Below, piece after piece: positions 52,276 to 59,491 of a stretch of DNA of 59,746 nt. The stretch's first letter is position 1; each line of letters begins with the position of its first letter. Position numbers and translations under genes: made by a program. Below the pieces are notes generated by a model. That model ran no database searches. It worked only from the letters and a program-made list of their open reading frames with translations, and was not told the DNA's origin. This DNA is from Alphaproteobacteria bacterium (GTDB lineage: Bacteria; Pseudomonadota; Alphaproteobacteria; RF32; CAG-239). Location: NCBI GenBank assembly GCA_016283295.1, contig JAEEMQ010000002.1, positions 1 through 59,746 on the forward strand, read 5' to 3'.

Positions 52276-52332
52276 TGTAACAAAAATGTTATACAATAAA
52301 GCTTGATTTCGGCACGAAAAATAGTGTATATT
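52276..52332 (+). promoter_or_regulatory. TGTAACA element plus putative promoter of the 52368 effector-family gene
   Basis: TGTAACAAAAATGTTATACA (52276-). -35 TTGATT at 52303, exactly 27 nt from the T of TGTAACA. 18-nt spacer, then TATATT (52327-52332). Confidence 0.5.
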
Positions 52333-52367
52333 AAAACATAGAGTATGTATGAACCAAAGGACTGATT

Positions 52368-54806
52368 ATGGCTGGCGAACGCTTAGTTGTTCCGGATTTT
52401 GACAATATCGGCGAGTTTAAAAAATGGGTCGGTAATTTGGACGAGCGCGCCATTCAAAAATGGACAGCTGCCGATTGGGTGGCATTTTATAAAAAAATAG
52501 AGCCGTTGAGTGCTGAATGGTTCAGCAGTCCGCACAAGATGATGACAACTTGTACGGAAGAATTTATTAAACTACACAGCAATTATCGTCTTGAACCAAA
52601 GCAGTTGGAATATATAAGAGAATTAGCACGTCAGGCCGGTAAAGAATTAGCCGAACAAAATGTGGATGCCGCTGAGTTGGCCATCAAAACAACAAATACC
52701 GATTTAATAAATCCGGCAAATCGCAATAACGCTGTCAGAAAAATGACTGAAAAAGTAGATAATATTGCGGCAGAAAGTACAAAATATGCGCCTGAACATC
52801 GTTTGCAAACAATGAGTATAATTGACGAGACTATGGGTAATACACAAGGTGTGGCGAATATGAAAGGGGAAAAAGGTTTTGCTTCCATTAGAGTGAATAC
52901 CGCATCTGCCGTCGATAATACCATCAACGTATCAGCACATGAGGCGGCTCATGTCCATTTTCAAACCGGAAATCCACTCCAGATGGAATTGTTGCAAAAG
53001 AAAATATTGGCTCATCCCGAATTGGGAGATGATTTTGCCGCATTGATGATGTATAACAATAAATTCTATTTGGATTCCAGAACCATAGATGATTGGTTTA
53101 CATATAAATCTATCGCTCCTCTGGATGAATGGGGTAAAAAATTCCGAGGGTACAGCCACCAACCGGTAGAGAAGTTCAGCGAAATATACGGTATTGAGGT
53201 GGAACGTGCTTATCGTCATGCCAGCGGACAGATTTCAGAGAGAACAGCCCTCAAAGTTTGCGGTTATATCGGGAAGACTCCGGAAGCCGTGCAATATACC
53301 TCCAAAGGAATTGAAATCACCTATCGGGCCGGGTTGGATGAAGACTTAAGCGGTAAAAAGCTTATGAAAGAGCTGAAAAGCAAGTTCGGCGGATCGATGG
53401 CGGATGAATTGGATGTTAAATTGCTTGATAAAGCCGGAAAAGATGTAAAAATTACGATTCCGCAAGACAGTAAATTCACTCAAAAATTTGAAAAATTTTT
53501 AGCATCACGGCCTGAATCTGAGGCGGTTGCGGACTTTATCGCCAAAAATCCGAGTTTTGCTCAATATAGTGATTCGGAAATAAAGTTAATGTTTCCCAAG
53601 TCGGAAATTACCGAGAAAGAAATATATTTGCTTCATAAAATGGAGCAACAGACGGGAAGTGCGGTAATAATTGAGGAAGCGGGTAAGAAAAACGTTTTTA
53701 CCACGGTTACCGTTCCGCGCGATAAAGAATTTTTTGCTAAGGTTGAAAAGGCAGGTAATACCTCAAAATTTAAGAAAGCTGCCCGGAAAATAGACAGGGC
53801 GATTGATAATACCATCGAAGATTGCGGCAAAGCGCTCAATAATTCTAAAGTCGGTAAGGCTTATGCTAAAGCAAAGCAAGCCGTAGCCAATTCAACGCCG
53901 GTGCAAAAAACCAAAGAGGCGGCGAAAAAGGCAAAAACCGCGGTGGTGCAAACCGCTAAAAAGGTCGGGCAAAAGGTGGCGCAATCGAAGGTCGGAACCG
54001 CCGTAAAACAAGCGGTAAACGGCACGGCGGCCCAAACCGCCAAAAAAGCGGTCGACAAGGCCGCCAAGAGTGCGGTAACGCAAGCTGCGAAAAAGACGGT
54101 AACCAAGGCCGTTACCAATACCGCGGTTAAGGCCGTGGGCAAGTCCGTATTGAAAAAAATTCCGCTTATCAGTATCGGTGCCGGTTTGATATTCGGGGCA
54201 CAGCGCGCCATGGCCGGAGATTTTGCCGGCGCCGCCGGTGAAGTTGCTTCCGGTGTATGCGGTACTTTTCCGGGAGTAGGGACAGCAGCCAGCGTGGCCA
54301 TAGATGCCGGACTTGCCGGTCGCGATATTTATAAAGAAGTCAAAAACGCCGACGATGCCACCAAACAGCAGGTTAAAAAGGATAGGGAAAACGCCAGAAA
54401 ATACGGCGAGAAAAAACAAAAACAGGTAGCCAGAGCCTCGGCAAAAGCTAAGTCCCCAACAACGCAAAAACAGGCAACCGCCGCCAAAATGAAAACCGAT
54501 GCCGCCAATGCCAATAAATATCAAAAGCAGATGGAAGCCATTATTAATAAGCTGAATAAGGCTAACGGCAAGGCTAAAGCCATGGATGCGGCCCACACCG
54601 CCGCCGCGCTGTATCAAAAATACGGTGATAATGCTTATGCGTTGTTGCAAGAGGCCGTACAAAGTCCAGGCTCGTATCAAAAGCTGGGTGACGGTAAACT
54701 GAAAACCTCACGCGATGTGATTCAGCACTTGTGCCAAATGCCGGATACCAAACAGAATCAGCAAATTGTACAGAGTATCGTGCAGAACCGTGCCAGAAGC
54801 AAGTAA
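52368..54806 (+). CDS. Shared-CTD family protein A: HExxH-containing N-region, K/A-rich amphipathic repeats, glycine-zipper hydrophobic segment, conserved C-terminal module
   Basis: 812 aa with no signal peptide. SAHEAAHVHF. AKKAKTAVVQTAKKVGQKVAQSKVG... repeats. IGAGLIFGAQRAMAGDFAGAAGEVASGVCGTFPGVGTAASVAIDAGLAG. C-terminus QMEAIINKLNKANGKAK...LKTSRDVIQHLCQ...NRARSK aligns with the three genes downstream. Confidence 0.8.
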   Translation: MAGERLVVPDFDNIGEFKKWVGNLDERAIQKWTAADWVAFYKKIEPLSAEWFSSPHKMMTTCTEEFIKLHSNYRLEPKQLEYIRELARQAGKELAEQNVDAAELAIKTTNTDLINPANRNNAVRKMTEKVDNIAAESTKYAPEHRLQTMSIIDETMGNTQGVANMKGEKGFASIRVNTASAVDNTINVSAHEAAHVHFQTGNPLQMELLQKKILAHPELGDDFAALMMYNNKFYLDSRTIDDWFTYKSIAPLDEWGKKFRGYSHQPVEKFSEIYGIEVERAYRHASGQISERTALKVCGYIGKTPEAVQYTSKGIEITYRAGLDEDLSGKKLMKELKSKFGGSMADELDVKLLDKAGKDVKITIPQDSKFTQKFEKFLASRPESEAVADFIAKNPSFAQYSDSEIKLMFPKSEITEKEIYLLHKMEQQTGSAVIIEEAGKKNVFTTVTVPRDKEFFAKVEKAGNTSKFKKAARKIDRAIDNTIEDCGKALNNSKVGKAYAKAKQAVANSTPVQKTKEAAKKAKTAVVQTAKKVGQKVAQSKVGTAVKQAVNGTAAQTAKKAVDKAAKSAVTQAAKKTVTKAVTNTAVKAVGKSVLKKIPLISIGAGLIFGAQRAMAGDFAGAAGEVASGVCGTFPGVGTAASVAIDAGLAGRDIYKEVKNADDATKQQVKKDRENARKYGEKKQKQVARASAKAKSPTTQKQATAAKMKTDAANANKYQKQMEAIINKLNKANGKAKAMDAAHTAAALYQKYGDNAYALLQEAVQSPGSYQKLGDGKLKTSRDVIQHLCQMPDTKQNQQIVQSIVQNRARSK

Positions 54807-57845: not shown

Positions 57846-59399
57846 TTAAGCCATACCGCCGCGGCCGCGTCTTTTGGTAGCGGCAATCGCCAGAATCTGC
57901 TGATTTTGCTCCTCGTTGTCGATTTGGCACAGCTGTTCCAGAACATCACGCGAGGAGGTGAGGCGCTTGCCGTTTTCGTTGCGCAAATCCAAACGTTGCG
58001 AAAATTGCGACGGCGACATCATTATCTTGGTCAAAACCTTGGAGGCGTCGGTGCCGTAGAGCTCGGCCAGGCGATCGATGGTTGCTTCGATATCAACCGG
58101 ATTTTTCTTGCTGACTTTGTTCAAGTTGTTCAGCATTGACTCCATTCTGGCCTTATCTTTATCCGAAATTTCGTCGGTGCGGACAACCTTTTTCTCGCTC
58201 GAAGCTTCGGCCTGTGCTTCTGCCTGCGCGGCCGGCTGCTCGGCTTGGATGGCGGAAGATTCACGCTGCTCGTTGGTGGCCGCCGTAACATAGAACATCG
58301 AAAAACGTCTTTCCTGACGGGAGGCTTCTTCTCCGGCATTTTCGCCGTCGATACGCATTACGGCCGGAGTAGCACTCGGAACATTGGCATTTTTAACGTA
58401 AGAATCCGCATATTGGATAACCTTATTATTTCTGCCCTGAGCGGTAAAGAGGTGATTTTCGGTTTTTTCCAAATCGTCGACGCGAGTACCCAGTTTTTCC
58501 CGCTCCCGGCTGACCATACGCGCCAAATCGGTGGTTGAGAGTTCGCGATATTGATCCAATTCATCGTTCATCTGTTTGGTCATCCAGCGATTCATATCGC
58601 CGGCTATGACGTTTGAATACAGAACTCGTGATGTTACAACCTCAAGATTGTTGCTGTTATTGGCCTGCAGAACATAATTTTTCAGATTACCGTTTTCATC
58701 ATAATTTACGGCAATAACCGTTTTGGCATGATAGCCGGAATCCGTGTGACTCGGTATACCGATGGTGGCTCCCGGGCCGACCTTGCCCTCGCTGATTAAA
58801 GTCCATAAATCGCCGCGCGCGGTATACCCCTCAAGAGCCGGGTCGTCCATAAAACCGTTGGCAAGGCGATAGTGCTTCGCTTCCGGATATTTTTGATAAG
58901 GCTGTACAAAGTTGTCGGCATCGTCAAAACCCATTTCCGCGGAAATTTTTGATTCCAAAGCCTTACTGCTGACGGCGCAACAGCTGGCCGTACGGCCGGA
59001 CAAGGTTTTGGTAACATATTGCGGAATGCGGGCATAACAACTGTCGGCAACGGCTTCTTTCATATCGGGATATCTTCTCATGATATCTGCACAGCCGTTC
59101 CAGGTTGCTTTGTTCATGGCTTTTTTGTTGCCGGTGCGGCTGCAGATTGATACGGATACATCGTAGGCTTTCAGGCCTTCGTTTAAGCATACATACTGAT
59201 ATTCTTGTTGGCGCATGGCACGATATTGTTCCAGCAGAGCTTCGCGGAACTCTTTGTCATTGGCATAATCTCCCGGATTAAGACGCGGGAAGTTGTCTTC
59301 AATTTCCCGTTTTCTTCTTGCTGCTACATCGTCGGTCAAATTACCGGCTTCGGCCGATTTTGTTGGTACAGTCTGCCTTCTTACCACTCTCTTTCCCAT
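57846..59399 (-). CDS. Shared-CTD family protein D: candidate papain-like Cys/His hydrolase head + conserved C-terminal module
   Basis: 517 aa with no signal peptide. GRTASCCAVSS and SHTDSGYHAKTVIAVNYDENGN suggest a Cys...His catalytic pair (NlpC/P60- or CHAP-like; inference only). CTD DKDKARMESMLNNLNKVSKK...LTSSRDVLEQLC...KRRGRGGMA. Confidence 0.8.
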   Translation of the reverse strand: MGKRVVRRQTVPTKSAEAGNLTDDVAARRKREIEDNFPRLNPGDYANDKEFREALLEQYRAMRQQEYQYVCLNEGLKAYDVSVSICSRTGNKKAMNKATWNGCADIMRRYPDMKEAVADSCYARIPQYVTKTLSGRTASCCAVSSKALESKISAEMGFDDADNFVQPYQKYPEAKHYRLANGFMDDPALEGYTARGDLWTLISEGKVGPGATIGIPSHTDSGYHAKTVIAVNYDENGNLKNYVLQANNSNNLEVVTSRVLYSNVIAGDMNRWMTKQMNDELDQYRELSTTDLARMVSREREKLGTRVDDLEKTENHLFTAQGRNNKVIQYADSYVKNANVPSATPAVMRIDGENAGEEASRQERRFSMFYVTAATNEQRESSAIQAEQPAAQAEAQAEASSEKKVVRTDEISDKDKARMESMLNNLNKVSKKNPVDIEATIDRLAELYGTDASKVLTKIMMSPSQFSQRLDLRNENGKRLTSSRDVLEQLCQIDNEEQNQQILAIAATKRRGRGGMA

Positions 59400-59435
59400 G
59401 GCCTTTCTCCTTAAATCAACACTTTATTTAGCTTT

Positions 59436-59491
59436 ATCATAGCATAAATCGTGACAAAAAACAACAGCAAAAGTGTTACAGTTGTGTTACA
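59436..59491 (-). promoter_or_regulatory. Tandem TGTAACA elements plus putative promoter of gene 57846-59399
   Basis: Minus strand reads TGTAACACAACTGTAACAC (59491 down to 59473). -35 TTGTTT (59464-59459), 27 nt spacing. 17-nt spacer, then TATGAT (59441-59436). Confidence 0.5.

Follow-up and report, generated by a model that had tools for sequence, protein, structure and literature searches.

How does a bacterium bring under one control a set of genes whose products join a common C-terminal domain (CTD) to differing N-terminal modules, when each of the genes appears to need a promoter of its own? The question is raised by a 59,746-nt stretch of DNA from an Alphaproteobacteria bacterium of the RF32; CAG-239 lineage (assembly GCA_016283295.1, contig JAEEMQ010000002.1), hereafter the window, in which four such genes, A to D, occupy the region 52.2-59.5 kb between a conserved rnc-era-HAD-DUF308 block and rpsL. 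An initial annotation of this DNA had noticed the heptamer TGTAACA upstream of all four genes, always at the same distance from a putative −35 hexamer, and had proposed that they form one regulon under an activating DNA-binding factor. Here we find that the heptamer is one half of an 18-bp box with a fixed geometry, that the box is linked exclusively to this gene family, and that it is conserved across related genomes. From the sequence we judge, with a probability of roughly 0.6, that the box is the site of an OmpR/PhoB-family response regulator that co-activates a dispersed regulon of CTD genes.

An 18-bp direct repeat precedes all four genes

On the coding strand, the upstream regions read TGTAACAAAAATGTTATA-N9-TTGATT-N18-TATATT for gene A, TGTAACACAAATTTAACA-N9-TTGTTT-N17-TAACAT for gene B, TGTAACATAAATTTAACA-N9-TTGTTT-N17-(TGC)TAATAT for gene C and TGTAACACAACTGTAACA-N9-TTGTTT-N17-(TGC)TATGAT for gene D. 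The four strings quoted in the initial annotation are therefore exact and stand where it had placed them, and the distance it gave, 27 nt from the first T of TGTAACA to the first T of TTGATT or TTGTTT, holds in all four. The −10-like hexamers follow 18 nt downstream in A and 17 nt downstream in B, C and D, and the second half-site that had been seen 4-5 nt after the first lies exactly 4 nt after it in every case (TTTAACA in B and C, TGTAACA in D, TGTTATA in A). The second 7-mer thus starts 11 nt after the first, which makes the box a direct repeat of 7+4+7 nt with an 11-bp period and the 18-bp consensus TGTAACA-yAAA-T[T/G]TAACA. Two points had not been noted before: this repeat is of a form typical of the OmpR/PhoB family, and the box of gene A is weaker and less conserved than the other three. 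That box, TGTAACA-AAAA-TGTTATA (52276..52293, + strand), scores 22 bits against a weight matrix; the boxes of gene B (TGTAACA-CAAA-TTTAACA, 56586..56603, − strand) and gene C (TGTAACA-TAAA-TTTAACA, 57778..57795, − strand) score 29 and 30 bits, and that of gene D (TGTAACA-CAAC-TGTAACA, 59474..59491, − strand) is a perfect direct repeat.

Downstream of each box lie predicted elements of the sigma-70 type, with a conserved TAnnAT, a frequent TGn in front of it, and TTGTTT followed by a T-run. The core promoter of gene A (52303..52332, + strand) consists of TTGATT, an 18-nt spacer and TATATT and agrees with the consensus at 9 of 12 positions. Gene B has TTGTTT (56571-56576), 17 nt and TAACAT (56548-56553), together spanning 56548..56576 on the − strand. 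Genes C (57740..57768, − strand) and D (59436..59464, − strand) both combine TTGTTT (57763-57768 and 59459-59464) and a 17-nt spacer with an extended −10, TGC-TAATAT in C (hexamer 57740-57745) and TGC-TATGAT in D (hexamer 59436-59441). Because TTGTTT agrees with TTGACA at only three of six positions, a consensus promoter scan listed gene A's promoter alone. This is a small correction to the earlier description.

The four-gene pattern is not due to chance. TGTAACA on its own occurs 14 times in the window, where 4.9 copies are expected, while the composite TGTAACANAAATKTAACA-N9-TTG, with up to three mismatches, occurs 4 times against an expectation of 0.02, and none of 100 shuffled sequences reached 4. 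A weight-matrix scan of both strands of the window returned the four sites at 22-30 bits and nothing else above 15 bits, in agreement with the earlier remark that the arrangement stands before no other gene here.

The box in related genomes

Related sequences came from three sources. A CTD scan of species-representative genomes gave L001-L003, contigs of rumen metagenome-assembled genomes (MAGs) that share the synteny of the window and are labelled Alphaproteobacteria or Proteobacteria. A metagenome scan with the strict composite DNA pattern gave 23 loci, just three of them relatives (L006, L007 and L011), and the contigs of proteins found by an exhaustive CTD profile search gave L027-L039. 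In 163 kb of clade sequence we found 24 boxes of at least 18 bits, all of them oriented alike and placed 39-122 nt before an ATG. Every one of the 24 precedes a gene of the CTD protein family. The open reading frame (ORF) includes the CTD in 20 cases; the other four are an orthologue of gene A in L002 that has lost the domain, genes cut by the contig end in L003 and L007, and a paralogue of gene D in L031 that is without the CTD and keeps the basic tail. One further canonical promoter was found in L039, and L036, another contig of the MAG to which L003 belongs, has a box before a CTD gene, for a total of about 26 boxes on gut and rumen alphaproteobacterial contigs. Since the L036 box stands on a contig unlinked to L003, the gene set is dispersed and not merely a tandem cluster. 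The proposal of one regulon under a DNA-binding factor is supported by these data, and the boxes before the same gene family in related contigs strengthen it.

Some family members are in decay or under remodelling (L002 6338-8632, − strand; L001 6316-7152, − strand; L031 250-1476). The A-orthologue of L002 is the one without its CTD, the A gene of L001 is fragmented, and the D-paralogue of L031 ends in the retained basic tail (…ARRNDRSMA). The box persists in L002 and L031 but not in the L001 fragment.

The remaining 20 loci of the metagenome scan were chance or unrelated matches and did not extend the regulon beyond the family, a doubtful case in L010 apart. There, the tail of the contig (8500-9794) has about 43% GC on a contig of 60-69% GC, so that the assembly is probably chimeric, and it carries a 26-bit box, TTGTTC, a 17-nt spacer and TGC-TATTTT before a 76-aa ORF without a CTD. 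By its upstream sequence this ORF may be a member of the regulon outside the family; it has no homologue in the other loci. An AraC-type regulator in L005 was discarded as a candidate, the contig being AT-rich and unrelated and the motif lying by chance inside a kinase gene. Iteron-like arrays of TGTAACA/TTGTTACA, found through the pattern match alone, occur on three unrelated rumen contigs (L013 at 1099, L014 at 978 and L022 at 311). A variant box, TGTATAA-N4-TGTATAA, was looked for in distant lineages whose CTD genes are box-less and was given up, with one perfect case and no pattern; that case, L038 6415-6432, stands between a terminator, which it immediately follows, and a CTD-family paralogue.

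Conservation of the box

Information content per position was calculated over 17 promoters from five genomes, anchored on the box. Box positions 1-7 and 9-18 carry 1-2 bits each, 10 positions are invariant, and the peaks coincide with positions 1-7 and 12-18, the two half-sites. Position 8, the spacer at 19-27 and positions 36-42 carry about 0.1-0.7 bits, with the exception of a T-rich pair at 21-22. Further downstream, the TTG at 28-30 never varies and a T-run comes after it, and both TTG(T) at 28-31 and TGnTAnnAT at 48-56 reach 1-2 bits. Between genomes the encoded proteins are 35-87% identical while the box is nearly invariant; identity is 92-99% for the flanking housekeeping proteins and 72-87% at third codon positions. 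It is this contrast between the box and its own spacers, within a fast-evolving locus, that argues for selection on the box. Orthologues of gene A have degenerate boxes, TGTAATAAAAA[AG]TTCA[TC]A, and these stand beside better −35 hexamers (TTGATT, TTGAAT).

Position of the box and proposed mechanism

With a transcription start assumed some 7 nt downstream of the −10, the box would lie at about −63 to −46, and 21 bp, equal to two helical turns, separate the centres of box and −35. Its distance of 27 nt to the −35 is the same in all canonical promoters, both in the window and in the related contigs. Two promoters form a second spacing class: in L029 (5931-5948) and L036 (82-99) the gap between box and TGn-extended −10 is shorter by 12 and 11 nt, respectively, no −35 (TTG) is recognisable, and the proximal half-site sits where the −35 would be. 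The shift corresponds to one helical turn, as expected for an activator that depends on the face of the helix.

We propose that the 18-bp box is bound by a sequence-specific transcription factor, most likely a head-to-tail dimer of a winged-helix response regulator of the OmpR/PhoB family whose gene would lie elsewhere in the genome. From about −63 to −46, upstream of a weak −35 of the sigma-70 type (TTGTTT), the factor would recruit RNA polymerase and thereby co-activate dispersed, separately transcribed genes. The targets would be modular cell-wall-hydrolase or effector-like proteins without a signal peptide, all ending in the CTD, a new helical domain that is about 100 aa long and has a basic tail. 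That the factor is an activator is suggested by the invariant phase, by the weak or absent −35 and by the place of the box upstream of the core promoter. The activator dependence put forward in the initial annotation is therefore plausible as far as the −35 hexamers (three of six positions), the fixed-phase box and the two variants one turn closer are concerned; the part that fits less well is that genes C and D and many of the orthologues carry a TGn-extended −10, which could allow basal activity.

The regulator family that the box resembles

Two similar 7-mers in direct repeat with an 11-bp period are the arrangement described for head-to-tail dimers of the OmpR/PhoB family, and TGTAACA-N4-T[G/T]TAACA, the direct repeat expected of such a site, is present in 26 promoters. 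We compared 24 of the boxes with published consensuses on either strand.

The closest likeness is to WalR/VicR (YycF). The WalR regulon consists largely of peptidoglycan hydrolases in which differing catalytic domains are paired with shared targeting domains, much as two lysozymes, an SGNH hydrolase and putative peptidases here share one common CTD. Its box has been given as TGTWAH-N5-TGTWAH and, refined, as TGTWAHA-N4-TGTWAHA (PMC4168254), the same 7+4+7 direct repeat with the same 11-bp period. Among the 24 boxes, 17 match this consensus without a mismatch and 4 more with one, and the box of gene D fits it on both strands. WalRK is, however, a system of low-GC Gram-positive bacteria, whereas the host here is a Gram-negative alphaproteobacterium and the proteins are without signal peptides. 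Signs of the Gram-negative host in the window are AsmA and internalin-like matches, LolA- and FadL-like ORFs read by eye, and the N-terminus of S12, which we take to be of the proteobacterial type. The match is accordingly a resemblance of the site and not membership of the WalRK system, and no walR-like gene was seen in the window or the related loci.

Other members of the family share parts of the picture. Dozens of Legionella effector genes are co-regulated by PmrA and CpxR, two winged-helix regulators (PMC6989116), and in the PmrA/CpxR effector regulons of Legionella and Coxiella a tandem-repeat box likewise flags scattered, singly transcribed effector genes (PMC6989116). The present case differs from those systems. 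Its boxes show 3-4 mismatches when compared with the consensuses of CpxR and of Salmonella-type PmrA; the C-terminal domain that its proteins share is a folded module of helices, about 100 aa long and without a relative in Pfam or the PDB; and a lone ATPase of the PilT/GspE family is present, with no type IV secretion system identified. The ArcA core is TGTTA-N6-TGTTA, and the bottom strand of 16 of the 24 boxes reads exactly so. ArcA binds two direct repeats 11 bp apart from centre to centre (PMC3798270); it is, however, a gammaproteobacterial redox regulator, mostly a repressor, and often uses three or more repeats, where the promoters here have two repeats upstream of the −35. CenR, with the box TGA-N8-TGA (PMC9275681), is an envelope regulator of the OmpR family in Alphaproteobacteria, and its direct-repeat site likewise lies upstream of the −35 in activated promoters, yet all 24 boxes have 1-2 mismatches among its 6 specified bases. 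The consensuses of CenR, PhoB, CpxR, PmrA and PhoP were all set aside as poor fits.

Two readings of the conserved elements that involve no such factor were also rejected. An extracytoplasmic function (ECF) or other alternative sigma factor does not suit them, for the 10 or 21 nt between a half-site and the downstream conserved element misfit the spacing of the sigma-70 family; and an upstream promoter (UP) element or plain A/T tract is rejected on account of the conserved G2, C6 and C17.

Alternative explanations

Several observations count against an OmpR/PhoB-family activator. Because the genomes compared are closely related and some of the sites belong to paralogues, the sites cannot count as independent. 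The −35 and −10 assignments, and with them the position at −63 to −46, are predictions, and the many promoters with an extended −10 might be active in the absence of an activator. As a near-palindrome (TGTnACA), the half-site TGTAACA lets the box match the consensus on either strand, which leaves the orientation of a dimer ambiguous. CTD genes of more distant lineages (L027, L032 and L038) are without the box. No regulator came to light nearby, where the initial annotation had pointed: neither the window nor the 328 kb of fetched loci contain an OmpR-like regulator ORF. Finally, regulators of the WalR type are known to repress as well as to activate (PMC4168254).

A rather unlikely alternative is that the box serves another kind of factor, of the AraC/XylS, LuxR/FixJ or a lineage-specific type, or acts mainly as a repressor operator or anti-silencer. 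The family assignment comes from the architecture of the repeat, the pseudo-palindrome TGTnACA could suit symmetric binding of each 7-mer, an extended −10 could provide a basal activity that a bound protein modulates, and factors of the WalR type can, as noted, repress. Yet a direct repeat of identical half-sites with an 11-bp period is what homodimeric winged-helix regulators typically bind (PMC4168254, PMC3798270, PMC9275681); the canonical box overlaps neither the −35, the −10 nor the start region, which would be unusual for a simple repressor; and the shift of the box by one turn comes with loss of the −35, which fits activation better. Another proposal takes the box for a local version of the CtrA box, which would place the genes in the cell-cycle and development regulon of CtrA, the alphaproteobacterial master regulator. 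It has the merit of drawing on the host's own class; CtrA is itself a response regulator of the OmpR family, and its site is likewise a direct repeat of 11 bp with TAAC at the core of each half. CtrA also controls lysis and gene-transfer-agent genes in some Alphaproteobacteria, and the lysozyme domains here match the model of a Bartonella gene-transfer-agent endolysin, weakly and below the cut-off. With TTAA-N7-TTAAC as the consensus, as cited in the literature, the GTAA-N7-TTAAC inside the box is one position off in 11 of the 24 boxes, but not one of the 24 is exact and the other 13 have 2-3 mismatches. The first position is G in 25 of 26 boxes where CtrA sites have T, the conserved flanks T1, A7, AAA at 9-11 and A18 fall outside the CtrA consensus, and the window is without any canonical CtrA box. 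No typical target was seen with the box either, ctrA, ccrM, flagellar and pilus genes being absent from the sequences compared. Taken together this makes CtrA distinctly improbable.

It is very improbable indeed that the likeness of the promoters is simply inherited, the genes carrying copies of one ancestral promoter, spread by duplication or recombination between conserved flanks, in which the box has no regulatory role. Genes B and C are paralogues, all four genes have the CTD and the compared genomes are closely related, as such descent would have it. Conservation is limited, however, to the two 7-mers, the TTG and the −10, and the bases between them are randomised; the N-terminal domains of A and D are unrelated to those of B and C, and their 5′ leaders do not align; the unlinked locus L036 has the box in a different promoter layout; and effector orthologues have diverged, to 35-67% identity, around an unchanged box. 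A site for a response regulator of the OmpR/PhoB family thus continues to be our preferred reading.

Gene layout and encoded proteins

Gene A (812 aa, 52368..54806, + strand) encodes an N-terminal domain with the motif HEAAH, followed by a Lys/Ala-rich segment, a glycine-zipper-like hydrophobic segment and the CTD (54513-54803), without a signal peptide and with no hit in Pfam. The other three genes lie on the − strand. Gene B (567 aa, 54807..56510) joins a phage-type lysozyme of family GH24 and an SGNH/GDSL hydrolase to the CTD (54810-55121); its paralogue, gene C (343 aa, 56658..57689), has the GH24 lysozyme and the CTD (56661-56975); and gene D (517 aa, 57846..59399) joins an N-terminal domain of no assigned family to the CTD (57849-58166). 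As read from the sequences, none of the four products has an N-terminal signal peptide. Gene C ends in a terminator-like hairpin, ATACCGCGG-loop-CCGCGGTAT with a T-rich run after it (56607..56630, − strand), which was read from the sequence and not listed by the terminator scan and which lies 3 nt upstream of the box of gene B. The scan did list an intrinsic terminator of gene D (57799..57823, − strand; 9 pairs, 7 of them G-C), and the T-run that ends it abuts the box of gene C. With B and C each lying behind the terminator hairpin of their upstream neighbour, and with D diverging from rpsL, each gene needs its own promoter.

The CTD is a domain of about 100 aa with an Arg/Lys-rich tail at its end, and the four copies are 36-67% identical in pairs. 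An exhaustive profile search among 1.84 billion representatives found 67 CTD proteins, where a word-indexed search found only 3 fragments. In these proteins the CTD is joined to many N-terminal modules, among them lysozyme, lysozyme with SGNH, D-type, A-type and an 'HEQKH' family. Searches of Pfam, NCBIfam and PHROG gave no hit for it. An AlphaFold2 model of fair confidence (predicted local distance difference test, pLDDT, of 80) is a five-helix bundle, and no PDB fold matched it with E below 1. Given its C-terminal place on unrelated modules, its basic tail and the absence of signal peptides, an export or targeting signal is the most reasonable guess at its role. The signal domains of type IV secretion and the cell-wall-binding modules of autolysins offer loose analogies; in the Pfam and PDB comparisons the CTD showed no sequence or fold similarity to known type IV signal domains (XVIPCD-like or BID-like), of which only its basic tail and modularity are reminiscent. 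Among the proteins P0058-P0069, weak matches to the CTD family, four carry Pfam DAO_C, the helical C-terminal domain of glycerol-3-phosphate oxidase, which may be a distant fold relative or a false positive.

In gene A, the Lys/Ala-rich and glycine-zipper-like hydrophobic segments (KKIPLISIGAGLIFGAQRAMAGDF…; residues about 525-655, window 53950-54330) recur in P0009 and P0024. They match internal regions of large phage 'peptidase/endolysin' PHROGs, a possible sign of a membrane-inserting module. The N-terminal domain of gene D has conserved Cys and His residues and is possibly papain-like. Its AlphaFold2 model is poor (pLDDT 64), the hits to IdeS-like papain folds are weak and non-significant, the PDB gave no sequence hit, and a search for contigs that encode its exact product found nothing on record.

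Elsewhere in the window, a lone ATPase of the PilT/GspE/VirB11 superfamily (319 aa, 17576-18535, − strand) has no adjoining pilus or secretion genes. At 38455-40102, rplJ-rplL are followed by genes on the opposite strand and not by rpoBC, and rpsL lies 20 kb off, beside the CTD cluster. Six tandem paralogues at 3349-8929, with a conserved N-terminus FEQDGxxYxLYxLPDGFV and repeats GAPQKVGGxFxCxxNxLTSL, are leucine-rich-repeat or internalin-like proteins, with a weak match to InlJ.

Implications

For this uncultured lineage, the box and its genes add a regulon and a cis-element that are new, well supported and of a known kind. In function they come closest to two systems, the WalR autolysin regulon of the Firmicutes, which agrees in site and targets, and the PmrA/CpxR effector regulons of Legionella (PMC6989116). 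The 18-bp matrix scores targets more than 7 bits above background, so the whole regulon can be listed from MAGs. The box could also serve as bait for its regulator and as a simple, testable way into the study of how uncultured Alphaproteobacteria of gut and rumen control their genes, and its two spacing classes, one turn apart, are a natural experiment on the contact between activator and RNA polymerase. The co-regulation of this fast-evolving family of lysozymes, esterases and putative peptidases supports the idea of joint action in cell-wall attack, remodelling or delivery, and that of CTD proteins without a signal peptide points to an export route. Beyond this, we suggest only tentatively, and as a possibility we would not ourselves bet on, that box and CTD together mark an undescribed, lineage-specific system of gut and rumen Alphaproteobacteria, in which a polymorphic family of wall-degrading or effector proteins without signal peptides, exported or targeted by way of the CTD, would be turned on jointly by a dedicated winged-helix regulator of WalR-like specificity. 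If that were true, the system would amount to a Gram-negative equivalent of WalR control over autolysins, or to a new effector-delivery route whose substrates could be listed from the box alone.

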